Origin: an uncultured Candidatus Saccharibacteria bacterium
GTDB lineage: Bacteria > Patescibacteriota > Dojkabacteria > SC72
Direction: 5' to 3'
Assembly (NCBI GenBank): GCA_964480345.1
Contig: CAYZNW010000002.1
Coordinates: forward strand, 64,524-128,523
Length of the DNA stretch: 64,000 nucleotides
Numbering within the stretch: position 1 is the first letter of the stretch; each line of letters opens with the position of its first letter. Both the position numbers and the translations under genes were made by a program. Under the pieces are notes generated by a model. It worked only from the letters and a program-made list of their open reading frames with translations. It ran no database searches and was not told where the DNA came from. Positions 15,499 to 56,496 of this stretch are shown piece after piece.

Positions 15499-16821
15499 CT
15501 ACTCTTCATATACTTTTAAAATATCTTTCTTCTCAGTTCTAAGTTTGAATGTTCCTTTAGAATAGATATTTTGAAGGATACCAAGAGCGGTTAGAGTAAT
15601 TAATATAGATGTACCTCCTGCACTCATCATAGGAAGTGGAATACCTGTAGCTGGAATAGTTCCTAAATTAGTTCCAATATTAATAAATACCTCTAACAGT
15701 ATTTTTACACCTATACCTACAGCAATCAATGAAAGCATAGTATCCCCTGAAAATTTTATAGCTGTCAAAAATCCAGTTATGATTAAAACCCCATACAAAA
15801 AGAAAAGTATCAGACTACCAAGTAAACCAAATTCTTCTGCATATGATGCAAATATGAAATCGGTTTGATACTCAGGAAGGAAGTTTCTCTTACTCTGAGT
15901 ACCGTTACCAAAACCTTTACCAAATAGCTGACCAGAGCCTATTGCTATTCTAGATTGGTTTACATTAAAACCTATATCTTCCTTAGTTTCTTCTGGGTTT
16001 AAGAAAGCTTCTATCCTGTTTCTCTGATAATCTTTAAAGACATCGTTCCATACTAACTTTGCAAATACTCCTAATATTGTTCCTATGACTAAAGCTATTA
16101 TGATGAATGTCTTCCAATTGTTTTTTGAATAGAATCCTAAGATTGCAAAAAGTATTGATGGTACTAATAGTAAGTACCATATTGCCCTACCTGTAATTGA
16201 ACTGATTGTAAATGCCCCAACTATACCTCCAATTATCAATAGGATCACTGTGTTTCTGAAAGGGTTATTTAAACCTAGAAATGCTGTTATGAACCATATT
16301 ATTAAAGTTAAAGTTGCCATACTTCCACTTGGCTGTATATATACTAGAGCAACTACAGGAATTGTAAGTAGAAAAGAGATGAAGAAGAGTAACAGCTCGT
16401 TATATTTATCTTTGTATGAGAGAAGTGTGGCAGTAATTAATACGACAGAAAGCTTGGCTATTTCAGAGGGCTGTATTTGAACTCCTCCTACAACAAGCCA
16501 TCTTTTTACATTAGCAATTGTGGGACCAAATAACAGTGTGGCTATTAGTAATACGATGGTAAATATATATATGAGAAGAATTACCTGCCAATGTTTTAGA
16601 TATGATAGATCTAAGTATGCAAGTATGAAATATGCAAGTATTCCAAATAGTATGAATCCTAGTTGTTTTACAACAATTGATATACTTCCTCCTTCTCCAG
16701 ATGCAGATATTGTTGTTGAATAGAGAGTAATAATTCCTATTATTATGAGAAGAATCATAGGAAGAAATACGCCAAAACTGAAAGGTTTAAACCTTTTTAT
16801 ATCAAACAGGTTAGAGTTCAT
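15499..16821 (-). CDS. ftsW: SEDS-family peptidoglycan glycosyltransferase FtsW/RodA
   Basis: About 10 TM segments. GSGQLFGKGFGNG...LPEYQTDFIFASYAEEFGLLGS...PLPMMSAGGTSIL are hallmark FtsW/RodA/SpoVE motifs. Sits next to ftsZ. Confidence 0.85.
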   Translation of the reverse strand: MNSNLFDIKRFKPFSFGVFLPMILLIIIGIITLYSTTISASGEGGSISIVVKQLGFILFGILAYFILAYLDLSYLKHWQVILLIYIFTIVLLIATLLFGPTIANVKRWLVVGGVQIQPSEIAKLSVVLITATLLSYKDKYNELLLFFISFLLTIPVVALVYIQPSGSMATLTLIIWFITAFLGLNNPFRNTVILLIIGGIVGAFTISSITGRAIWYLLLVPSILFAILGFYSKNNWKTFIIIALVIGTILGVFAKLVWNDVFKDYQRNRIEAFLNPEETKEDIGFNVNQSRIAIGSGQLFGKGFGNGTQSKRNFLPEYQTDFIFASYAEEFGLLGSLILFFLYGVLIITGFLTAIKFSGDTMLSLIAVGIGVKILLEVFINIGTNLGTIPATGIPLPMMSAGGTSILITLTALGILQNIYSKGTFKLRTEKKDILKVYEE

Positions 16822-20346: not shown

Positions 20347-22683
20347 CTATTTTTCACCGTTTAACAACTCTTGCAATGTCTTCTTGCTGTCTTCGTTATT
20401 TCTCTCATTTAATTTTCCTTCAGCTTTAAGTCTTTCGAACTGATCACCTCCAAATACATTTTTGGTAACCTCTTCTGTGGCTCCACGAGCTATTGGTATA
20501 TTGAAAGTAAATGTACTACCTTTACCTAACTCACTTGTTACTTTCATCTCACCACCGTGTGCTTTAACTAATCCGTAAACTACATAAAGACCTAACCCTG
20601 TCCCACCTGGTCTAACTAATTGTGCTGAGCCGTTATCTTCAGATATGTATTGATCTGTTCTAAAGAATTTAGTACCTAGTTTCGGAATGTTTTCTTCTGC
20701 AATACCTTTTCCAGTATCGGTTACTGAAACAAATACATTTTGATCATCATAGGTTACAGATACTGTCACAGAACCTACATCTGTATATTTAACAGCATTG
20801 TTTATCAGGTTATCAACAATCTCCTGTACTCTTCCCTTGTCTGCTAGGACATATGGAAATTCTTTTGGATTCTCTGGAGTATTAAACAGTAATGAGATTC
20901 CTTTGAGGTCTGCTTTCTTTCTCTGCCCCTCTATACCTAGTTCTATTGTATTTAATATATCAACAGGGGTCTTAAACAGTTCTAATTTCTCACCTTCTAA
21001 TTTCGCAGATACAAGTAAAACATTAATGATTCTAATTTCGTTTTCAATACTTTCCCTAATTCTTTTTGTATATATATCAAACTCATGGAAATGTTTGATT
21101 TCGGCTTCTTCTAATACTGTCTTCTCTTTCCAATTACCAAGCATCTCGACATTTATCTTAACAACAGTAGCGGGAGTTCTTAATTCATGACCCATGATAT
21201 CAATCATATTGCTTTCTTTCTTTCTAGCTTCTTCTAACTCTTTGAATTTTTTCATTAAATCTTCAGTAGCTTTGTTAATTCTTACCTGTAATGTTTCATT
21301 AAAACTTAACACCTCTTGATGCAAGTGAGCTCTTTGTAATGCGACTGATACAAGTAATGCTATGGAGTGAATATAGTCAATATCTTGAATAGAGTAGTTG
21401 CTTGAGTCTTTTTTGTCTCCCATGAAAATATATACTTTCCAATCCATATTTTGAGTAATGTTAATTGGAAATAGACACTGCACTTTTAGTGAAGACAACA
21501 TATTGGTAATCTCATAATCACCTCCCTCTAAATACAGTGATTCATCACGCAGAACTGGATTGTCCAATTTATTCAATATTCCTACATACTCATCATTTAC
21601 CTCATATGTATTAAGAGCTTGGAAATTTTTCATAATTTCACCAGAAGCAACAACTACAATGCCTGTCTTTACTGAGAAAACTCGCTGTAACAGATTCTTG
21701 CTCTCTTCTAAAACCTTGTATGTATCTAGTAAAGTATCAAGATTTTGCATTAACTTAGATTTCTCTTCTTCAGGATCAATACTAGATCCGTAGAATATCT
21801 TCTTAATGAATCCTTCTATACCTTTTGAAGTATACATATATACAAAAAGAAAGATCAGAGCATAGAAATATCCTGATATTAATGCTCCAGTAGCATATAC
21901 ACTCCCCCAAGTAACAGTTTGCAAATATACTAAGAGATGAAATATTGCATACGGAACTAATGCTAGTAACAGTGTGTACAGGAATTTACTAATGAGAAGT
22001 TTAGTACTCAAAAATCGATACCTAATTATTGAGTAGTATGTACCGAATATGAAGAATGACAAACCTAGCGGTCCTAATGAACGAATTTCTTTAAAACCAA
22101 GTATCGGTAGAACTAAGTTAGTTACAAATGTGAAGACAATGGATATCACAGAACCAACAAGTATATACAACATCTGCGTCTTTTTAACTTTGTTCTGTTC
22201 TTTTCTGTAAGCTAAAAAGAAGATTGTTACGGAAATTAGAAACAGTACTCCTGTAAATATACTGAAATACAGATGCATACTGCCTGGCTCCGATTTAAGA
22301 GCATTATCAACAATAGATACACTCTTAACTATCCTATCTGTAAATGTCATTACTACGAAAAACGCAGTTACTATACCCCATATCCACTTAGTAATATTCG
22401 AAGAAGATCCATTTTGATATTTCTTTACAAAAAAGTAGTAACTGTAAGCTATTAATGCTGATGAAGTAAAGGATAGCCTAGATGTCCAAAGGGAGAACTG
22501 TAAAGATTCATAGAAGATATCGGTTAACAGAATAGTTACAACCCAGAATATGATCCAGAAAACCATAAAAGCGAAAGTTCGCCTTTGAATAGAGCTTGAG
22601 TCTTCGTTACTAGATAAGACCCCAAACAAAATATATGAACAGAGGAATAGAATTATTGTTAATAGTAGTACTTCTATAATCAT
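20347..22683 (-). CDS. Sensor histidine kinase with about 10-TM N-terminal domain and GAF-like middle domain; no adjacent response regulator
   Basis: H-box IDIMGHELRTPATVV, N-box LINNAVKYT, and G-boxes DTGKGI / GGTGLGLYVVYGLVKAHGGEM / GKGSTFTF. N-terminal 300 aa are polytopic membrane. Confidence 0.85.
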   Translation of the reverse strand: MIIEVLLLTIILFLCSYILFGVLSSNEDSSSIQRRTFAFMVFWIIFWVVTILLTDIFYESLQFSLWTSRLSFTSSALIAYSYYFFVKKYQNGSSSNITKWIWGIVTAFFVVMTFTDRIVKSVSIVDNALKSEPGSMHLYFSIFTGVLFLISVTIFFLAYRKEQNKVKKTQMLYILVGSVISIVFTFVTNLVLPILGFKEIRSLGPLGLSFFIFGTYYSIIRYRFLSTKLLISKFLYTLLLALVPYAIFHLLVYLQTVTWGSVYATGALISGYFYALIFLFVYMYTSKGIEGFIKKIFYGSSIDPEEEKSKLMQNLDTLLDTYKVLEESKNLLQRVFSVKTGIVVVASGEIMKNFQALNTYEVNDEYVGILNKLDNPVLRDESLYLEGGDYEITNMLSSLKVQCLFPINITQNMDWKVYIFMGDKKDSSNYSIQDIDYIHSIALLVSVALQRAHLHQEVLSFNETLQVRINKATEDLMKKFKELEEARKKESNMIDIMGHELRTPATVVKINVEMLGNWKEKTVLEEAEIKHFHEFDIYTKRIRESIENEIRIINVLLVSAKLEGEKLELFKTPVDILNTIELGIEGQRKKADLKGISLLFNTPENPKEFPYVLADKGRVQEIVDNLINNAVKYTDVGSVTVSVTYDDQNVFVSVTDTGKGIAEENIPKLGTKFFRTDQYISEDNGSAQLVRPGGTGLGLYVVYGLVKAHGGEMKVTSELGKGSTFTFNIPIARGATEEVTKNVFGGDQFERLKAEGKLNERNNEDSKKTLQELLNGEK

Positions 22684-43507: not shown

Positions 43508-43516
43508 AATTTTCAA

Positions 43517-43549
43517 AGGCCTAGTCTTATACTAGGCCTTTTTTTTTGT
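43517..43549 (+). terminator. Rho-independent terminator (AGGCCTAGT-CTTAT-ACTAGGCCT + T9)
   Basis: Perfect 9-bp stem with 5-nt loop followed by nine T residues, directly after the 42920 gene stop. Confidence 0.7.
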
Positions 43550-45293: not shown

Positions 45294-45818
45294 ATGACAC
45301 TCAAGATTGGTTCTAAAGTATTCTATCCTTCACACGGTGCAGGAAAGATTAAAGATGAAAAAGATATTGAATTTAATGGGCAGAAGAAAAGATATTTCGA
45401 GTTTGAGTTAATTACAAATCCCTTAACTATTTCGACTCCTGTAGAAAATATAGAGTCTCTTGGAATCAGACCTGTCATGTCAGTTAAAGATATAACAGAG
45501 GCTATTAAAGTCCTAAAGAAGACTCCAGCTGTAGACCCAAAGGTTAAGGATTTCAATATTATGCTAAATATTTTTAAAGAGTTAGAGAGTAGCTCAGATA
45601 TAAATGATTCAATCAAGATAATTCAATACTGTAATTTTGTTAAGAAGAATAGAGAGAAAGATGGAAGATTAATTCCTGTAAGTATTGAAAAGCAGTTAGA
45701 GGCTGCTACAAAAAACATTGTAGGTGAGTTAGCTATGTCTAGCGGAGTAACTCTCAAGACTGCTTCAGCTAATTTCACTAAGATTACAGGTATTAAAGCA
45801 GAAATAGATCAGTATTAA
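45294..45818 (+). CDS. CarD/CdnL-family RNA polymerase-binding transcription factor
   Basis: LKIGSKVFYPSHGAGKIKD matches the CarD_CdnL_TRCF N-terminal Tudor-like signature (KxGDxVVYPxHGxGxI); about 170 aa. Confidence 0.7.
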   Translation: MTLKIGSKVFYPSHGAGKIKDEKDIEFNGQKKRYFEFELITNPLTISTPVENIESLGIRPVMSVKDITEAIKVLKKTPAVDPKVKDFNIMLNIFKELESSSDINDSIKIIQYCNFVKKNREKDGRLIPVSIEKQLEAATKNIVGELAMSSGVTLKTASANFTKITGIKAEIDQY

Positions 45819-48736
45819 TTTATTTCTACTCCTACATCTTTACCATTTACAGAGATTTTCAGCTTTAATGGTTCTGTCGAGAAGGAAACTTCTTTTGCAT
45901 GCAATTCTTCAAGATTCTCTTCAGCATACTCTTTCAATGAATCTAGTGTATCTTTATCCTCTACATAAAGTTTCAAAACAACTAGATCAGACATCTTAAG
46001 ACCCTCTTTCTTCCTTAAATCTCTATATCTTCTCATAAACTCATTAATCAAACCCTCTTTTCTCAATTCATCAGTTAAATTACTATCAATTGTAACTAAT
46101 TTAGAGCCCTCTCCTGAAGAGAACATTCCCTCTCCTTTTACCTCTTTTTCAGAGTATTCAATATCTCTTACATTTAGCTCTTCTTTTACAATAGATTTGG
46201 TTAACTCATCATCAGAACCTATGTATGCTTTAGATAAAGGCTGACGCAAGCTCGTTCTTGCGATTTCTCTAGCTTTCAATCCGTTAGAACATATCTCTCT
46301 AATATCTTTCATTCCATTTAATACCTCCATATCTAAATCTTTCTCTTCAAATAGAGGATACTCCTCTAAATGAACTGATTCTTTCTTTTCACTTAAATCT
46401 ATATTTACAACTAGGTTTTGATAAATTTCTTCAGAAACAAACGGCATAAATGGAGCAAGTATTTTTGAAAGTAGAACTAAGCTGTAATGTAAAGTTCCTA
46501 TTGCATCAACATCTCCACTCTTAAATCTATTTCGACTTCTTCTGATATACCACTGTGATAGATCTTTCACATACTCCTCAATATCTCTGGAAGCCATAGC
46601 CATGTTATAGCTATCGAGTGATTTTCTACTCAGCACCACAAGTTCTTTCCCTCGCTCAACTATCCATTTGTCCATAGGGTTTGATAAGCTGTTAACAGAG
46701 TATTTATCTATATCAAAATCATGAAGTTTCGCATAAGTTACCAAGTAGTTGTATGAATTCCACAGAGGTAAATAGAATCTTCTTCTTACATCTTCTAAGA
46801 TAGACCAGCCAAATCGCATATTTGAACCAACCGAAGCTCCAGCATAGTTCCATCTAATAATATCAGCTCCTATTTTGTCTGCTGCATCATCAAATTTAAT
46901 ATAGTTTGGTTTAGTCTTGCTCATCTTTTCATTCTTTTCATCTCTTAACTCAGCTGAGCCCAAAACCTCTTTGTAAGGAGCTTTCTTCTCAAGCACTACT
47001 CCAAAAACAAGCATAGAGTAAAACCATAATCTAACCTGTTCTATCATCTCAGTAATAAAATCAGCAGGGAACCACTTCTCCCAATATTTTCTGTCTTCAA
47101 GATATTTCAATGTAGAGAAAGGAACCACTCCTGCATCCAACCAACAATCTCCAACATCTGGAATCCTTTTAACACTCTCTCCACACTTTGGACATTTAAT
47201 TTCGATTTCATCTATCCAAGGTCTATGTATACTCTCCAATTTATCAACCATCTCAGGCTTAACAGCAAGCTTCTTTAACTCTTCTAAACTTCCTACAACA
47301 TGGAAAGTACCACACTTCTGACACTCATAGAAAGGTAATGCAAGACCGTAAAATCTTTTTCTACTAATCATCCAATTGCCCATACTCTCAAGCCACCCTA
47401 ACATTCTTTTGCCTACAAATTCAGGATTCCACTTAACCTCCATTGATGCTTTCTTCAGATCTTCTTTGATACTCTGTACATCCAAGAACCAGTTATCTTC
47501 AAGTCTAAACAAACACTTTGTCTGACATCTCCAACAGTGAGGATAGCTATGCTCGTACTCCTCTTTTTTGTAAAGAGAACCTTGCTTCTCAAGCATATCT
47601 ATTACCATATCCTTAACATCATGAGCGTACATACCATCTAATTCACCAAAACCCTCAGTGAAATTTCCTGCAGTATCAATCGGAGAAATCATATCAGCAT
47701 TTAACTTTAAGCCTAGCTCAAAGTCTTCCTGACCACAACCAGGAGCAATATGTACAACTTCTGATCCACTTGTAGATTCAACCAATTCCCACTCTACAAT
47801 ACTGTGTTTAATTCCTTTCTGTGCAGGGATATCAAATAGAGATTCATACTCTTTACCTACAAGTTCTTTCTTTACATCTATGACATTATATTTAGAGATA
47901 TTTAATCTCTTTGCCGCATCCAGACCTAAATACACCGTCCTACCATCTATATCTGTTCTCACATATTCCAAAGCAGGATTTACTGCCAACAATACATTCG
48001 ATGTTAATGTCCAAGGTGTAGTTGTCCAAGCCAAAACATACTCATTCTCTTGCCCTTTCAACTTAAAGAAGACATACAAAGCAGTATCAGTTACCATTTG
48101 ATAACCATCAGCTTGCTCATGTTGAGAAAGCCCAGTCTCACATCTAGGACACCATGTAGTTGCTGATTTGTTTTTGTAAAGCAAACCCTTATCTTGACAT
48201 ATCTTCAAAAAATTCCAGATGTAGAGGTTATTCTCTCGAGACATTGTATAGTAGCTGTTATCCCAATCCATAAACATACCTAGCCTCTTAGACTGCTCTG
48301 TTTGAATACCAGCAAACATCTTCACTCGCTCAATACATTTTTTAGTAAAGTTATCCAAGCCGTACTCTAAAATATCTTTCTTACTATTGAAACCAAGCTC
48401 CTTTTCCACACCAACCTCTACCCAAAGACCCTGACAGTCAAAACCGTTCTGAAATCTCTGCTCATAGCCCAACATATTTTTGTACCTTTGCACAATGTCC
48501 TTATATGACCTGCCCCATGCATGATGAATCCCCATAGGATTATTTGCTGTAATTGGTCCATCTATGAAAGAAAACTTCTCCTTTGCACTCTTATTTCTAT
48601 CAAGATATTTCTGCACTATCCCATTTTTATTCCAAAACTCCATAACAGCTTCTTCCATTTTTACGATATCCACATTAGGCTGAACCTGCTTAAGATTTTC
48701 TAGCTTGCTCATATGTTTTTCCATTAATTTAAACAA
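45815..48736 (-). CDS. ileS: Isoleucine--tRNA ligase
   Basis: Class I aaRS: HIGH-region variant PMGIHHAWG, WTTTPWTL (IleRS-specific), KMSKT (KMSKS), Zn-finger cysteines CWRC...C..C and C..C; 973 aa. Track start is a TTG at comp 48736; in-frame ATGs 12 and 24 nt downstream are alternative starts. Confidence 0.85.
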   Translation of the reverse strand: MFKLMEKHMSKLENLKQVQPNVDIVKMEEAVMEFWNKNGIVQKYLDRNKSAKEKFSFIDGPITANNPMGIHHAWGRSYKDIVQRYKNMLGYEQRFQNGFDCQGLWVEVGVEKELGFNSKKDILEYGLDNFTKKCIERVKMFAGIQTEQSKRLGMFMDWDNSYYTMSRENNLYIWNFLKICQDKGLLYKNKSATTWCPRCETGLSQHEQADGYQMVTDTALYVFFKLKGQENEYVLAWTTTPWTLTSNVLLAVNPALEYVRTDIDGRTVYLGLDAAKRLNISKYNVIDVKKELVGKEYESLFDIPAQKGIKHSIVEWELVESTSGSEVVHIAPGCGQEDFELGLKLNADMISPIDTAGNFTEGFGELDGMYAHDVKDMVIDMLEKQGSLYKKEEYEHSYPHCWRCQTKCLFRLEDNWFLDVQSIKEDLKKASMEVKWNPEFVGKRMLGWLESMGNWMISRKRFYGLALPFYECQKCGTFHVVGSLEELKKLAVKPEMVDKLESIHRPWIDEIEIKCPKCGESVKRIPDVGDCWLDAGVVPFSTLKYLEDRKYWEKWFPADFITEMIEQVRLWFYSMLVFGVVLEKKAPYKEVLGSAELRDEKNEKMSKTKPNYIKFDDAADKIGADIIRWNYAGASVGSNMRFGWSILEDVRRRFYLPLWNSYNYLVTYAKLHDFDIDKYSVNSLSNPMDKWIVERGKELVVLSRKSLDSYNMAMASRDIEEYVKDLSQWYIRRSRNRFKSGDVDAIGTLHYSLVLLSKILAPFMPFVSEEIYQNLVVNIDLSEKKESVHLEEYPLFEEKDLDMEVLNGMKDIREICSNGLKAREIARTSLRQPLSKAYIGSDDELTKSIVKEELNVRDIEYSEKEVKGEGMFSSGEGSKLVTIDSNLTDELRKEGLINEFMRRYRDLRKKEGLKMSDLVVLKLYVEDKDTLDSLKEYAEENLEELHAKEVSFSTEPLKLKISVNGKDVGVEIN

Positions 48737-49010
48737 AAAGCCCCTTAATGAATATTACTACATCACGTACTAATACACATCAAGGGGCGAATTATCGCGT
48801 TACCACCCTATTTTCAGAATTTCATTACTGAAATTCCCTTCTCAGCCAAACTTTGCGAGCCGTGCCTGGCATAGTCTATGATCTCGGAGACCTACCGTCG
48901 GATTCTACTTGCCTAGCAGCTTTCTTTCCGATACTCACCAGCGATACTGGGTCACAGTGTTACCACGATTATACCACATAACCCCATCTTACGTCGGACC
49001 TAGGTCCGAT
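48737..49010 (-). promoter_or_regulatory. T-box-like riboswitch leader of ileS with intrinsic terminator, plus promoter (-10 TATAAT at + 48968-48973 read on minus)
   Basis: Minus strand reads ...AAAATAGGGTGGTAACGCGATAATTCGCCCCTTG...CATTAAGGGGCTTTTTG. AGGGTGGTAACGCG matches the T-box consensus AGGGTGGNACCGCG at 13/14. It is followed by a GC stem CGCCCCTT/AAGGGGC and a U-tract immediately 5' of the ileS start. Region GC is well above the local average. Confidence 0.55.
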
Positions 49011-49015
49011 ACAAG

Positions 49016-50797
49016 ATGGAGTGGTATAATCTTCCCATGGTTTGGAATTTCGAAAAACTTTACAAAGGTACATCGGATCCTCAAATAGCAAAAGACATCA
49101 AACTCTCGGAGCGTCAGAATTTTCTCTTTGTTTCAAAGTGGACAAAGGATCACAGGTATTTAAACAATCCCAAGGTTTTGTTGTCAGCGTTGACTGAGTA
49201 CGAGGATTTGCAGCGTAGATATGGTCAGTGTACCAAACCTCATTACTACTTTTTCCTTTTGAATTCGCTGGATCAGACGAATACGGAGGTAAAGGCGAAA
49301 CTAAATCAGATTTCGGAGATTGCTACAAGGCTTGAGAATCAAATTCAATTTTTCGAGTTGAATATTTCTAAGATAAGTGTTGCCCAACAAAGGAAGTTTC
49401 TCACTTCCCCCCTTTTGAAGAATTACAAGCATTACTTGGAGCGGTTATTTGCTGTATCAATGTATCTTCTCTCGGATAAGGAGGAGCAGGTTTTCAATTT
49501 GACTTCAAAGACGTCTTACTCCAATTGGGTGAATATGGTTTCGGAGTTGTTGGACAAGCAGAAATTAACTGTCATAGATGAAAAGAGCAAGAAGAAAGAT
49601 ATTTCATACAATGAGATTGGGAAGTATTTAGACAGTAAGAGTAGTAAGGTTCGAAGATATGCATCAAAGCAGTTTAATTCTGTAAATGAGAGATATTTAG
49701 AGATAGCTGAGTTTGAATTGAATTCTATTCTTGAGAACAAGAAGGTTTCAGATGAGTATAGAGGTGTATTTAGGCCTGATTTAACAAAATATATTGCTGA
49801 TGATATAGAGACAGATATTGTTGATACCCTTTGTTCTGTTGTTACAAAACATTTTGATATTTCTCAGCGATATTATGCTTACAAAGCAAAACAGCTTAAG
49901 CAAAAAAAGATTAAATACTATGAAAGAAATGTACCTGTTGGAGCTATTGAGTTGGAGTATTCATACGATCAAAGTATGAATTTGGTGAAGAGAACTTTTG
50001 AGAATTTAGATAGTAGTTTTTTGAATATTGTTGAAGGTTTTCAGCGAAATGGACAGTATGATGTGTTTCCGAAAGAGGGTAAATGTGGAGGAGCTTTTTG
50101 TGTTACCGTTGGTAATAATTTGCCTACATACATTCTCCTTAATCATACAAATAAACTTAATGATGTTTTAACGATTGCTCATGAGAGTGGTCATGGGATA
50201 CATTCTGAATTTTCTAAATCACAGAGTGAACTTAATTCTGGTTATCCGACTTCTCTAGCAGAGGTAGCTAGTACTTTTTTTGAGGATTTTGTATTAGAAG
50301 AGATTTTAAAAGAAGCTCCTGAGAATCAACAAATGACTATTTTAAATCAGAAGATGAATAATGATATTTCTACAATATTCAGACAGGTTGCTTTTTTGAA
50401 TTTTGAAAAGGAGTTGCATTACGAGTTTAGAAAGAAAGGGTATCTAAGTAAAGAGTATATTTCTGAGCTTTTTGTAAAGCATATGAAGGCATATTTGGGA
50501 GAGGCGGTAGTAGAGGATGATTCTATGCGATACGGTTGGATTTATGTTAGTCACTTTAGAAGTTTCTTCTATGTATATTCTTATGCTAGTGGATTGCTTA
50601 TATCAAAAGCACTGCAAAGTATGGTGAGAGAGGATGGGAAGAATATAGAATTGGTGAAGAGATTTTTAAGTTCTGGAAGTACTAAATCACCTAAGGATAT
50701 TTTCAGTGATATGGGTATTGATATTACAAAGAAAGAGTTTTGGTTAAAGGGTATTAAAGAGATAGAGAGAAACTTGCCGGACCTAGATTCGAACTAG
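49016..50797 (+). CDS. pepF: Oligoendopeptidase F (M3B family)
   Basis: Zinc motif TIAHESGHGIHSE (HExxH) with downstream E; about 590 aa, M3-family layout. Confidence 0.85.
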   Translation: MEWYNLPMVWNFEKLYKGTSDPQIAKDIKLSERQNFLFVSKWTKDHRYLNNPKVLLSALTEYEDLQRRYGQCTKPHYYFFLLNSLDQTNTEVKAKLNQISEIATRLENQIQFFELNISKISVAQQRKFLTSPLLKNYKHYLERLFAVSMYLLSDKEEQVFNLTSKTSYSNWVNMVSELLDKQKLTVIDEKSKKKDISYNEIGKYLDSKSSKVRRYASKQFNSVNERYLEIAEFELNSILENKKVSDEYRGVFRPDLTKYIADDIETDIVDTLCSVVTKHFDISQRYYAYKAKQLKQKKIKYYERNVPVGAIELEYSYDQSMNLVKRTFENLDSSFLNIVEGFQRNGQYDVFPKEGKCGGAFCVTVGNNLPTYILLNHTNKLNDVLTIAHESGHGIHSEFSKSQSELNSGYPTSLAEVASTFFEDFVLEEILKEAPENQQMTILNQKMNNDISTIFRQVAFLNFEKELHYEFRKKGYLSKEYISELFVKHMKAYLGEAVVEDDSMRYGWIYVSHFRSFFYVYSYASGLLISKALQSMVREDGKNIELVKRFLSSGSTKSPKDIFSDMGIDITKKEFWLKGIKEIERNLPDLDSN

Positions 50798-50858: not shown

Positions 50859-52520
50859 TTATATCATCTTGGATATATACTGTTCCAACCTTTCTTTAAC
50901 TTTCTTCTCGCCTAATACTGTCATTACCTGACACAAATCAGAAGTTTTAGTTCTACCTGTCAGAGCAACTCTCAAAACCATAGCGACATCTCCCACGACT
51001 CCCTTGTATTTTTCACTGTGTAACTCATACTCTTTTCTGTCATCACAATATCCTAACTCTCTAGAAATTTTCTTAATATTTTCAAACCAAGCATCAGAAT
51101 CATCTGTAGAGAAGTAATTAGATAGATACTCTTTAACTATCCTAACCTGTTCATCTTTAGCAATCCTGTCTGATATATCTTCAAACTCCATCAGTTCGTC
51201 AAAAAACATTTTGAATTGACTGTATATATCCTCATATTTAACAATATCTTTCCTAATCTTGTTACCTGTTCTCTCTATGTTAAGGATAGATATACTGTAC
51301 TCTCGATTCTCAGCAAGTAATGTATGCAACTCTTTATGATATTTCTCAGCCCAATTCAAAGCTTTGTTGTACAGATCTTCAGCAGAGAGAGTTGCTATGT
51401 ACTCTTTACAAGTATCATCTAATTTAACAATATCAAACAAAGCTCCAGATTTATTTAATTTTTCTACTGAAAGATGAAATTCTTTCAAATCTTTATCTGG
51501 ATTCTGTTTCCTCCAGTCGTAGAAATTAGAATTTGCTAGATTCAAAAGATACTCTATGAATCCTTCTGTTGGATATCCATGTTTACTGTAATACTCTATG
51601 CTAGCTTCTGGATCCTTCCTTTTACTTAGCTTCCGTTTGCCTCCGTTTTCCATTTTCATCAAAGGAGAGATATGAACATAGGGAATCAGTTTGAATCCTA
51701 GCTTTTCAAACAATTCAACATGTAAAGGAACAGATGAGAACCATTCATCTCCTCTAAATATATAGGTTATACCCATCAATGTATCATCTATAGGGTGAGC
51801 AAAGTGATAGGTAGGAAATCCATCTGATTTAAGAAGTACTGCGTTCATATCGTTTTGATGAAGTGTTACTCTACCCTTTACTAAATCGGTCAATTCAAAT
51901 GTTCTCTCAAAATCACCTGTAGAGTTCAATCTAATTACATACTTTTCTCCTTTATTTAACTTTTCTGATATTTCATTAAATGATGCATCTTTCCATTTAG
52001 CCCAATCACAGTAGCAACCTGTTCTTACTCCTAACTCTGTTTGTTTCTTTCTAATATCTTCTAGTTCCTCTTCTGAAAGAAAACATGGGTATGCATAACC
52101 CTTCTCTACGAGATCTTTGGCAAACACATGATATATATCCAATCTTTTACTCTGCATGTATGGGCCGTAATCACCTCTCTCTTCTTCTTCATTAAGCATA
52201 CCTTCGTCAAATGATATTCCAAATTCATTTAAACCATTAACTATTAATGAAACTCCATTTTCTACCTCTCTGTTTTTGTCTGTATCTTCAATTCGTAGAA
52301 TAGAGATTCCTTTTGTTTGTCTAGCAAGCCATGTAGAAATTAAGCTAGTAAATACTCCCCCTATATGCAAAAACCCCGTAGGACTAGGTGCAAATCTTAA
52401 AACCATAGCTCCTTCATCAACGTTTCTTTGAGGATACTTTTCTAAGATATCATTAACTGTTTTAGTAACATCTGGAAAAAGTAGTTCTGCTAACTTTTTG
52501 TTCTCATCGTTTGTTCTCAT
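50859..52520 (-). CDS. gltX: Glutamate--tRNA ligase (likely non-discriminating)
   Basis: RFAPSPTGFLHIGG (HIGH region) and GGKRKLSKRK (KMSKS) with GluRS-type catalytic core. tRNA-Gln lies immediately downstream and gatB/gatC are in the window. Confidence 0.85.
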   Translation of the reverse strand: MRTNDENKKLAELLFPDVTKTVNDILEKYPQRNVDEGAMVLRFAPSPTGFLHIGGVFTSLISTWLARQTKGISILRIEDTDKNREVENGVSLIVNGLNEFGISFDEGMLNEEEERGDYGPYMQSKRLDIYHVFAKDLVEKGYAYPCFLSEEELEDIRKKQTELGVRTGCYCDWAKWKDASFNEISEKLNKGEKYVIRLNSTGDFERTFELTDLVKGRVTLHQNDMNAVLLKSDGFPTYHFAHPIDDTLMGITYIFRGDEWFSSVPLHVELFEKLGFKLIPYVHISPLMKMENGGKRKLSKRKDPEASIEYYSKHGYPTEGFIEYLLNLANSNFYDWRKQNPDKDLKEFHLSVEKLNKSGALFDIVKLDDTCKEYIATLSAEDLYNKALNWAEKYHKELHTLLAENREYSISILNIERTGNKIRKDIVKYEDIYSQFKMFFDELMEFEDISDRIAKDEQVRIVKEYLSNYFSTDDSDAWFENIKKISRELGYCDDRKEYELHSEKYKGVVGDVAMVLRVALTGRTKTSDLCQVMTVLGEKKVKERLEQYISKMI

Positions 52521-54747: not shown

Positions 54748-56496
54748 CTACTTTTTCTTCTTAATATCAATACTTAATATATCCAAATCAGCTTTATCAA
54801 CCTCTCTAGGAGCACCTGTCATTAACTCCTGTGCATTACTCTTTGGGAAAGCATAAACCTCTTTGATATTCTTTTCATCAAACAGAATCATCATGAATCT
54901 GTCATACCCTACTGCAAAACCACAGTGTGGAGGTGCACCGTACTCAAAAGCAGAAATCATATGACCAAACTTTGATCTAGTTTCTTCTTCTGAATAACCA
55001 CAAACTTTAAAAGCTTCTATAAACGAATCAGGATGATAGTTTCGAACAGAACCACTAGCTAATTCATAACCATTACATGCTACATCATACTGCTGAGCAA
55101 ATATCTTGTCTGGCTTCTCTTTCTTTAATGCTTCCAAACCACCCTTTGGCATAGAAAACGGATTATGAGCAAAATCCCACTTCTTGTTCTTCTCATCCCA
55201 TTCAAACATAGGGAAATCTACTATCCATGCAAAAGCAATCACATCAGGATCTTTCAATTCCAATAAATCTCCCATCTTACTTCTCAAAATACCTGCTAAC
55301 TTACATGCCTTCATATACTCATCTCCAAATGCAAAAATATACTGCTTCCCACTAAGCTTGTATCCACCTTTCTTGAACTTTTCGATTATCTTCTTCTGAG
55401 TATCATCATTGAAAAGTTTAGCCATAGAACCTGAAAGCTTGTTATCTTCTAATGCAAACCACACCATACCTTTAGCTCCCTCTAATTTCATATCTGCTGT
55501 TAATTTATCAATCTCTTTCTTACTAAACTCTCTATCAACCATAATTCCTTGTACACCTTCAATATCTTTGAAAATATTTACGCCTGAATTTTTGAATTCA
55601 TCAGTAAGATCTACAAGCAACATCTCATATCTTAAATCAGGCTTGTCTGTACCATACTTTTCCATTACCTCTTTGTAAGGAATCTGAGGAAATACTTTGC
55701 TTTTTACTTTCTTTTTAGTCAAGTTTTCAACTATATATGTGAAGTAAGGCTCCATAGTTTCAAAAAATTCTTGCTGGCTCAAAAAAGAAGTTTCTACATC
55801 TACCTGATAGAATTCTCCTGAATGCCTGTCTGCTCTAGGATCTTCATCTCTAAAACATGGAGCTAACTGGAAATATTTATCCACACCACCAACCATTAAT
55901 AGCTGTTTGTACTGTTGAGGAGCTTGAGGTAAAGCATAAAATTTACCAGGATAGATTCTGCTTGGTACAAGATAGTCTCTTGCTCCCTCTGGAGAGCTAA
56001 CTGTCATTAAAGGAGTCTGAACCTCTGTAAATTCTGCATCAGAGAACCATTCTCTTGTAGCCATCGCCATCTTATGACGATACTCGATTAAGTCTCGAAG
56101 TCTCTTTCTTCTGATATCAATATATCTGTATTTTAATCTCATACCCTCATCAATATCAGTTCCCTCTGTTTCCAAAGGAAATGGAGGAGTTTTTGATGCA
56201 TTTAGAATCTTAACCTCTTCCACTACTACTTCTATATCTCCTAGCTCCATATTTTTGTTAACCAGAGCCTTATCTCTTTTCTTAACTGTACCCTCTACAT
56301 CTAACACATACTCCAACCCTATTTTTCCTGCATCACCCAACTTACTTGAATCTAGTACTAGTTGTAATTTGCCGCTCCAATCTCTAAGATCAACAAATAC
56401 TAAAGATCCATGATCTCTAATTTTAGAAGCCCAGCCACAAAGTCTAACTTTCTCTCCTACAAATTCGGGAGTTCTTTTTACTAAGATTCTTTTCAT
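54748..56496 (-). CDS. aspS: Aspartate--tRNA ligase (bacterial type)
   Basis: N-terminal OB-fold (VRLCGWASKIRDHGSLVFVDLRD), class II motif 2 FRDEDPRADRHSGEFYQVDVE, motif 3 GAPPHCGFAVGYDRFMM; about 580 aa. Confidence 0.9.
   Translation of the reverse strand: MKRILVKRTPEFVGEKVRLCGWASKIRDHGSLVFVDLRDWSGKLQLVLDSSKLGDAGKIGLEYVLDVEGTVKKRDKALVNKNMELGDIEVVVEEVKILNASKTPPFPLETEGTDIDEGMRLKYRYIDIRRKRLRDLIEYRHKMAMATREWFSDAEFTEVQTPLMTVSSPEGARDYLVPSRIYPGKFYALPQAPQQYKQLLMVGGVDKYFQLAPCFRDEDPRADRHSGEFYQVDVETSFLSQQEFFETMEPYFTYIVENLTKKKVKSKVFPQIPYKEVMEKYGTDKPDLRYEMLLVDLTDEFKNSGVNIFKDIEGVQGIMVDREFSKKEIDKLTADMKLEGAKGMVWFALEDNKLSGSMAKLFNDDTQKKIIEKFKKGGYKLSGKQYIFAFGDEYMKACKLAGILRSKMGDLLELKDPDVIAFAWIVDFPMFEWDEKNKKWDFAHNPFSMPKGGLEALKKEKPDKIFAQQYDVACNGYELASGSVRNYHPDSFIEAFKVCGYSEEETRSKFGHMISAFEYGAPPHCGFAVGYDRFMMILFDEKNIKEVYAFPKSNAQELMTGAPREVDKADLDILSIDIKKKK

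Follow-up and report, generated by a model that had tools for sequence, protein, structure and literature searches.

A T-box leader with an ultrashort Stem I upstream of ileS in a Candidatus Dojkabacteria genome and its predicted role in transcription attenuation

We analyzed a stretch of 64,000 nucleotides (nt) from an uncultured bacterium of the lineage Dojkabacteria (assembly GCA_964480345.1, contig CAYZNW010000002.1, positions 64,524 to 128,523 of the forward strand), referred to as the window and numbered from its first letter, and in it the leader of ileS, the gene for isoleucine--tRNA ligase. Judged from its sequence and from comparison with relatives, this leader is a genuine tRNA-sensing T-box of the rare ultrashort Stem I type, and it is almost certainly functional. 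With a probability of about 80%, we propose that it senses uncharged tRNA-Ile and controls ileS by transcription attenuation and antitermination. A new kind of system is not at issue; what appears novel is the combination of a Class III decoding module with an intrinsic terminator, in a phylum without described T-boxes. The first-pass annotation of the window had proposed a T-box-like leader at this position, and that interpretation is supported by an alignment to the T-box family model over its whole length and by a canonical antiterminator that shares a strand with the terminator. The argument rests on the following elements:

45815-48712, minus strand: ileS, the regulated gene, for a type 2, MupA-like isoleucine--tRNA ligase (TIGR00392, 687.7 bits, cutoff 621)
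48968-48976, minus strand: extended -10 element TGgTATAAT, read from the sequence, with TATAAT at 48973-48968
48932-48959, minus strand: ultrashort Stem I, in which 3 nt stand for 74 positions of the Rfam model (76 bits with our covariance model R1)
48943-48945, minus strand: specifier codon AUC (Ile), followed by the purine G48942, assigned from loop position and conservation
48899-48930, minus strand: Stem II with the S-turn motifs GAAAGAAAG (48928-48920) and AGUAGAA (48909-48903)
48873-48897, minus strand: Stem IIA/B pseudoknot, with IIA CGG/CCG (48897-48895 with 48887-48885) and IIB GGUCU/AGACU (48892-48888 with 48877-48873)
48845-48870, minus strand: extra variable hairpin GCCA...UGGC between IIA/B and Stem III, a pairing predicted by homology
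48816-48837, minus strand: Stem III, 9 base pairs (bp) with a GUAA tetraloop (48828-48825), from covariation
48783-48809, minus strand: antiterminator from the Rfam alignment, with outer helix AGGG/CCCU, 7-nt bulge UGGUAAC (48805-48799), inner helix GCGA/UCGC and loop UAAU; -7.5 kcal/mol when the fragment is folded alone
48796-48809, minus strand: T-box sequence AGGGUGGUAACGCG, unique in the window with 0 expected by chance, and kept in all related leaders
48740-48788, minus strand: terminator hairpin GCCCCUUGAUG...CAUUAAGGGGC, with a folding free energy of -27.4 kcal/mol
48731-48739, minus strand: U-run UUUUUGUUU, read from the sequence

The T-box core itself, AGGGTGGTAACGCG at 48809-48796, matches the 14-nt consensus AGGGUGGNACCGCG at 13 positions, exactly as the first-pass annotation had counted, and it is the sole match to AGGGTGGNACCGCG with at most one mismatch in 64 kb; none of 100 shuffled sequences gave such a match (0.00 expected). 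A covariance-model search, which the first-pass annotation had recommended, aligned the Rfam T-box family RF00230 over model positions 1-219 to 48964-48780 when permissive filters were used. It scored 45.8 bits, the gathering score being 93; its E value was 6.4e-9 for the region alone and 6.8e-7 window-wide, and it was the only non-tRNA match in 64 kb; at the gathering threshold, the Rfam scan of the window returned tRNAs and no T-box. The score is far under the gathering value because 3 nt stand where the model has 74 Stem I positions. That Stem I could not be assigned by eye in the first-pass annotation is likewise explained by its being ultrashort, and its structure is now assigned from an alignment. 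No second T-box was found in the window, either with a discriminator model, R2, run with filters off or with Rfam at an E-value threshold. Of the other aminoacyl-tRNA synthetase genes, which the first-pass annotation had proposed to check for the same element, gltX (50859-52520) and aspS (54748-56496) in the window lack it.

For relatives, the IleS protein was searched against one genome for each species, which gave 79 loci. The closest IleS proteins (60-87% identity) belong to metagenome-assembled genomes of Candidatus Dojkabacteria, in the Candidate Phyla Radiation (CPR)/Patescibacteria, and they place the host of the window in this group, so that the earlier guess of a reduced genome was right. 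In 18 Dojkabacteria loci, and in the two further loci L055 and L056, ileS is preceded at a distance of 95-150 nt by a T-box core; another, L044, was added by R1, a model of Stem I and Stem II based on 10 leaders. R1 has a single match in the window (76 bits) and recovers all leaders kept out of its building. L056 was missed by R1, and L055, L056 and L044 were missed by R2; these were identified only from motifs and by eye. No such leader precedes ileS in Shapirobacteria/Microgenomates, in archaea or at most of the other loci among the 79. Halanaerobiales and Caldisericota ileS genes (L047, L048, L049, L074) carry canonical T-boxes with a long Stem I, at Rfam scores of 117-134 bits. All 15 CPR-type leaders tested fall short of the Rfam gathering threshold, and routine annotation therefore misses the group. 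A metagenome scan with a linker-plus-T-box motif of the L055/L044 type returned 34 further loci, 29 of which were matched by R1 even though that model was built from Dojkabacteria only. The downstream open reading frames (ORFs) tested in this set encode IleS (TIGR00392, 853-878 bits).

The decoding part of the window leader is compact. Stem I consists of a base helix of 2-3 bp (48959-48957 with 48934-48932), a putative K-turn with a 3-nt bulge UGU followed by tandem G53.A35 and A52.G36 pairs, and an upper helix of 4 bp, CCAG/CUGG (48950-48947 with 48941-48938), which is capped by the 5-nt apical loop UAUCG (48946-48942). A long Stem I with a distal platform (AG bulge and distal-loop T-loops) is not found in this leader; such a platform characterises Classes I and II and not the T-box family as a whole. 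Among relatives, the apical helix occurs as CCAG/CUGG, GGAG/CUCC or GCAG/CUGC, and in the metagenomic set as GGGG/CCCC-like helices with loops of the form N(1-2)AUCA. Both Stem I helices are 98-99% paired with two compensatory pairs each, a result upheld in the independent metagenomic set.

The specifier reads AUC at 48945-48943, in the context AGUAUCGC within the apical loop. AUC followed by a purine ends this loop in all 20 aligned genome leaders, with loops of 5 nt in four and 6 nt in 16, and the same holds for 23 of 29 metagenomic leaders. Of the other six, four have a visible AUCA-containing loop that was misplaced by the alignment, and two (L093, L099) have no assigned loop; wherever the loop aligns, AUC plus purine is invariant. 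The encoded amino acid, isoleucine, agrees with the regulated gene, and AUC is also the specifier in the ileS T-box from Mycobacterium tuberculosis (PMC11297988). The first-pass annotation had offered two other AUC contexts as candidate specifiers. Both are present in the sequence, GAGAUCAUAG at 48885-48876 and AGUAUCGG at 48935-48928, but neither is the specifier, which is the AUC of the neighbouring AGUAUCGC. By position, GAGAUCAUAG was ruled out as a linker or loop inside the IIA/B pseudoknot, and AGUAUCGG as the 3' base of Stem I where it passes into Stem II.

Downstream of Stem I, the S-turn motifs of Stem II are kept in the 18 Dojkabacteria leaders (as GAAGAAAG in L018) and occur in variant forms in L055, L044 and L056. 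Both the K-turn and the S-turn are three-dimensional motifs that we infer from the sequence. The lower helix of Stem II is 98.8% paired with compensatory changes in 4/4 pairs, and the upper helix is 90% paired with 3/4. For the IIA/B pseudoknot we found 100% pairing and compensatory changes in four of eight pairs in a small sample of seven sequences (for example GGUCU/AGACC versus GAUCU/AGAUC). A hairpin closed by RCC/GGY, variable in length, occupies the position of the extra hairpin in 16/18 Dojkabacteria leaders and is missing in L012 and L013.

Covariation was evaluated over the whole leader. In the 20-sequence alignment of the 5' domain, 96.3% of the cells were paired and 11 of 15 pairs showed compensatory changes; none of 500 shuffles reached the observed values, and slid registers gave only 23-44% pairing. 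An independent metagenomic set of 23 distinct sequences from outside model building gave 91.1% pairing and the same share of compensatory pairs, 11 of 15. For Stem III together with the antiterminator, pairing was 99.6% and 9/17 pairs were compensatory. Taken alone, Stem III was 99.3% paired with compensatory changes in 6/9 pairs across 15 distinct sequences. The outer helix of the antiterminator was invariant, and three of the four pairs of its inner helix were compensatory (AUGU/ACAU in L018). Invariance of the outer antiterminator helix is a general property of T-boxes. Two MAFFT alignments with local errors, A1 (one nt at the Stem I/Stem II junction misplaced in L004-type rows) and A7 (L012 and L013 misaligned in the pseudoknot), were superseded by the model-based alignment A5 and the reduced alignment A8.

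The 3' part of the leader offers two mutually exclusive folds, since the strand GCCCCU (48788-48783) is both the 3' strand of the antiterminator and the 5' strand of the terminator. The AGGG stretch of the T-box can thus form an antiterminator with the 5' side of the terminator, an ability to which the first-pass annotation had tied its proposal. The terminator is the far more stable of the two (-27.4 versus -7.5 kcal/mol), and the 82-nt 3' segment has a folding z of -5.5. The GC-rich stem followed by a U-run that had been noted earlier was confirmed as the hairpin at 48788-48740 and UUUUUGUUU at 48739-48731. The promoter and the terminator of the leader both escaped a simple scan for such signals, which asks for a good -35 hexamer and for a stem without interruption; the terminator was missed only because its stem carries two 1x1 internal loops. 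Every Dojkabacteria leader has a hairpin of -24 to -32 kcal/mol with a U-run, next to an antiterminator of about -5 to -9.5 kcal/mol. From lineage to lineage the stems vary in sequence, and what is conserved is thus the hairpin itself. The terminator hairpins of L055 and L056 are weaker (-12 and -17 kcal/mol). In each of the 20 related genome leaders tabulated, 4-9 U come after the hairpin, and a run of at least five U lies within about 120 nt of the T-box in all metagenomic loci except L108, a canonical valS leader; in L086, L088 and L109 the script picked up a U-run inside a hairpin and did not locate the terminator. Elsewhere in the window, an intrinsic terminator at 43515-43541 is followed by TTTTTTGTTT, the same tail. 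These observations indicate that an ultrashort Stem I joined to a predicted terminator is a recurrent design in uncultured lineages and not a quirk of one genome.

The distance to the start codon bears on what the hairpin may do. The ORF containing ileS has 973 codons (45815-48736), and comparison with the closest relative, L001, gives ATG 48712 (MSKLENLKQ...) as the start conserved among relatives. This ATG lies 22 nt past the run of five U (48739-48735), so the earlier statement that the U-run ends a few nt before the start was wrong; an alternative in-frame ATG at 48724, 10 nt past the five-U run, is missing from the closest relative. Across the Dojkabacteria leaders, the AUG follows the U-run by 18-51 nt of A/U-rich spacer without a Shine-Dalgarno (SD) motif. 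As a side observation, GUUUAAAUUAA stands directly past the U-run at 48734-48724 and in the same position in L001, L003, L010, L012, L013 and L020, where its distance to the AUG is fixed at 22-23 nt.

SD signals are scarce in the window as a whole. In a survey of 20 large ATG-initiated ORFs (such as 15499-16821 and 20347-22683), with start codons taken mechanically from the ORF list, an SD-like motif, a weak AAGG, preceded only two, and the upstream regions were A/U-rich. At least one of these ORFs, 15499-16821, has a TATAAT box that ends about 7 nt before its AUG. Four Dojkabacteria relatives (L014, L015, L016, L019) have no T-box in the 40 nt 5' of ileS; there UAUGAUAUAAU (TGATATAAT) is followed by 7 nt and the ileS AUG, so that the mRNA is essentially leaderless. 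In this sublineage the riboswitch is either lost or was never gained. The pattern in the window suggests that SD-independent or leaderless initiation is common in the host. The SD sequestrator/antisequestrator platform that is the usual output of Class III T-boxes, typical of the class but not strictly part of its definition, is not found in the window leader, where a hairpin and a U-run stand in its place. With no SD to sequester, a translational platform is implausible and a terminator is the economical reading.

On this basis the following course of events can be proposed. Transcription would begin about 7 nt past the extended -10 box, with a predicted start near 48961. The K-turn stem would present the AUC specifier in the 5-nt apical loop, and Stem II with its S-turn, given its orientation by the IIA/B pseudoknot, would grip the codon-anticodon helix laterally, while no distal Stem I platform would be available for docking of the tRNA elbow. 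Stem III and the antiterminator would offer the UGGU of the T-box bulge, which would pair with the free ACCA-3' end of the tRNA. When uncharged tRNA-Ile is absent, the far more stable hairpin with its U-run would form and transcription would stop before ileS. When uncharged tRNA-Ile is bound at both sites, the antiterminator would hold GCCCCU and RNA polymerase would read through.

Several points weigh against this proposal. The RF00230 score remains below the gathering score, and model-based alignments are biased towards the modelled structure, a concern that is reduced by the slid-register controls and the independent metagenomic set. No tRNA-Ile gene was found in the window or in 24 loci, so that the GAU anticodon and the A73 discriminator were not seen. 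tRNA binding, the transcription start site and actual termination are each deduced from sequence, and termination at such sites by the RNA polymerase of Dojkabacteria is assumed. Transcriptional T-boxes are held to need, in general, a long, elbow-docking Stem I for fast tRNA capture (PMC7583486), which makes a transcriptional T-box without a platform kinetically questionable.

The alternatives were weighed against the same data. Control could act at two levels, the hairpin terminating transcription and, in full-length mRNA, also hindering loading of the 30S subunit or altering stability. Such a dual role finds some support in L055, L044, L102 and L103, in which the U-run abuts the AUG (0 nt) and the hairpin would fall within the ribosome footprint, and in the strand freed in L044, GAGGACGG, which resembles an SD. 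The A/U-rich spacer of 18-51 nt that the window shares with the remaining Dojkabacteria argues against it, and we regard it as unlikely.

Less probable still, indeed quite improbable, is purely translational control as in the actinobacterial Class III ileS T-boxes, with the hairpin acting as a sequestrator of the ribosome-binding site that tRNA-Ile would free. This type of decoding module is mostly tied to translational control in the literature (PMC10482949, PMC7583486), and the 3' strand of the hairpin, AAGGGG, is purine-rich and SD-like. Yet AAGGGG ends 28 nt before the conserved AUG at 48712, too far for an SD, the start codons of the Dojkabacteria leaders lie 18-51 nt outside the hairpin, and a sequestrator needs none of the 4-9 U that follow the hairpin in all 20 tabulated leaders. 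With SD motifs in just 2/20 window genes and leaderless ileS in some relatives, there is also nothing obvious to sequester.

A decaying or chance T-box remnant without a regulatory role, or a canonical T-box with a mis-assigned long Stem I, is hardly credible: the sub-threshold Rfam score and the four leaderless Dojkabacteria loci would suit a remnant, but compensatory changes hold every variable helix down to 60% IleS identity and in the independent metagenomic sequences, AUC is invariant, and a long Stem I has no room, given the conserved -10 box 6-9 nt before Stem I and the divergent pepF start at 49016. Attenuation of ileS transcription by a tRNA-Ile-sensing T-box is thus the reading that we prefer.

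How the leader relates to known T-boxes depends on which part is compared. Class III ileS T-boxes were reportedly described in M. tuberculosis, M. smegmatis and Nocardia farcinica by Sherwood et al. in 2015, with structures said to be deposited as PDB 6UFG and 6UFM. Class III, or ultrashort (US), T-boxes have a short Stem I without an elbow platform, carry the specifier in an apical loop of five or six nucleotides and depend on Stem II (PMC10482949). Every member known so far is said to regulate ileS and to respond to tRNA-Ile (bioRxiv 10.1101/2023.02.28.530422). The window leader shares with the actinobacterial examples the control of ileS by an AUC specifier, a short Stem I that has a K-turn, a 5- or 6-nt apical loop for the specifier and no elbow platform, a Stem II with an S-turn, the IIA/B pseudoknot, Stem III and a UGGN bulge. 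Its codon lies at about nt 17-19 from the predicted start, close to the N. farcinica arrangement, where Stem I has a K-turn and the codon ends at C18 and is followed by the purine A19 (PMC10651847, PMC7583486). Compared by published description, the decoding module agrees with Class III in every architectural feature.

The leader differs from actinobacterial Class III T-boxes in having an intrinsic terminator (hairpin and U-run) instead of an SD sequestrator, a CPR host with SD-poor genes and an extra conserved hairpin between IIA/B and Stem III, and some of its relatives have lost the pseudoknot or Stem III. T-boxes of Classes III and IV are described as 'mostly' translational regulators (PMC10482949), an intermediate or ultrashort Stem I being a feature of most translational T-boxes (PMC7583486), and TBDB equates a truncated Stem I with 'translational', its dedicated search having covered only Actinobacteria (PMC7778990). 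Actinobacteria are not among the nearest relatives by IleS, so an independent origin of the short Stem I is possible. A tblastn search of IleS against plasmids returned nearly only staphylococcal MupA and no actinobacterial leader for comparison.

With Class I T-boxes (Bacillus subtilis tyrS type, RF00230) the leader shares the competing terminator and antiterminator, the T-box 14-mer, the K-turn, Stem II, IIA/B (F-box-like CCGUUA in L010), Stem III and the presumed logic by which uncharged tRNA leads to readthrough. Unlike them, it is without two-thirds of Stem I, the distal part with the specifier internal loop, the AG bulge and the distal T-loop platform, and has its specifier in an apical loop, at 45.8 bits versus 117-134 for canonical ileS leaders. 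The Class II glyQS leader, a minimal transcriptional T-box, is likewise naturally reduced and terminator-based, but there the platform of the long Stem I is retained while Stem II and IIA/B are gone, the reverse of the window leader. We found no reports of T-boxes in CPR, Patescibacteria, Saccharibacteria or Parcubacteria in the literature searched, and isolated transcriptional Class III examples may already be on record.

Further features of the locus concern the promoter. The first-pass annotation had placed a TATAAT -10 box about 230 nt upstream; it is present at 48973-48968, and the preceding TGg makes it an extended -10 element. In the Dojkabacteria leaders TGNTATAAT is kept 6-9 nt 5' of the Stem I base helix. 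The -35 region of the ileS promoter is poor, and gltX has the same type of promoter upstream. The gene pepF is divergent to ileS. The interval from its start at 49016 to the ileS promoter has an almost perfect inverted repeat, CCATCTTGTATCGGACC T AGGTCCGACGTAAGATGG (48983-49019). This repeat overlaps the -35 region, includes a perfect palindrome of 16 bp, TCGGACCTAGGTCCGA, and may serve as an operator.

Structural variation among the relatives is considerable. In L004-L009, L011, L017 and L077, all Dojkabacteria, the IIA/B pseudoknot is lost and a plain hairpin, ACCUA...UAGGU, stands between Stem II and Stem III. In N. farcinica, a hairpin in place of the pseudoknot is reported to rescue 200-fold of a 1,200-fold loss in tRNA binding (PMC7583486), and the L004-type leaders may be a natural counterpart of that experiment. 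L055:1350-1503, L044:218-382, L102 and L103 are minimal T-boxes of about 150 nt that have neither the IIA/B pseudoknot nor Stem III, keep the ultrashort Stem I and Stem II, and share the linker AUGAGAAG(U/C)AAAC; in L044 a small ORF (MAKKKETIYAFIDSQNLNLG...) comes first, ahead of ileS. Extra hairpins occur inside the Stem I loop, 5' of AUC, in L090:8003-8088 and L098:3090-3188, and between Stem I and Stem II in L085, L105 and L093. By analogy, these metagenomic leaders seem to resemble the published Class IV 'intermediate' Stem I with its specifier in a side bulge.

One metagenomic locus stands apart by its gene. L092:2692-2880 (minus strand) is a T-box with a truncated Stem I upstream of proS (ORF L092:982-2691, minus strand; NF006625, 575 bits, above cutoff). 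It reaches 36.7 bits with Rfam, with 18 nt in place of 86 Stem I model positions, and has a terminator with U6. In this single example, a hairpin GAUUAU-CCCC-AUAAUC would present CCC (Pro) and A in its apical loop.

Two other observations concern the coding regions downstream of metagenomic T-boxes. The IleS proteins of L081:5215-8727, L083:2319-5879 and L100:1977-5303, at 1108-1186 amino acids, contain an insert of the histidine-phosphatase/phosphoglycerate-mutase family at about residues 520-690 that splits the IleS match in two. L087:1872-2132 (minus strand) is an 86-amino-acid hydrophobic ORF (MDKKEKTIKFLGTLGTVIAIIMFVALLE...) without an NCBIfam match that, in place of ileS, comes directly after an ultrashort T-box.

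At present, a long, elbow-docking Stem I is paired with transcriptional control, which needs fast tRNA capture before the polymerase reaches the terminator, and an ultrashort Stem I with slower, reversible translational control. If our reading is true, an ultrashort Stem I that is widely conserved and covaries, coupled with an intrinsic terminator, would offer a natural counter-example to that pairing, and the combination bears on the need for elbow docking in co-transcriptional tRNA sensing. More tentatively, and at somewhat less than even odds, ultrashort T-boxes may be attenuators across several SD-poor Patescibacteria and CPR-like lineages, elbow docking being dispensable and the type confined neither to ileS nor to Actinobacteria. 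As the Rfam threshold misses the group and the short-Stem-I search of TBDB was restricted to Actinobacteria, the distribution of T-boxes in uncultured phyla is probably underestimated. Regulation in Patescibacteria has been described as virtually unknown (PMC11665869). The ileS leader would give this group a concrete native regulatory element, and it suggests that reduced genomes still monitor the charging of tRNA-Ile.

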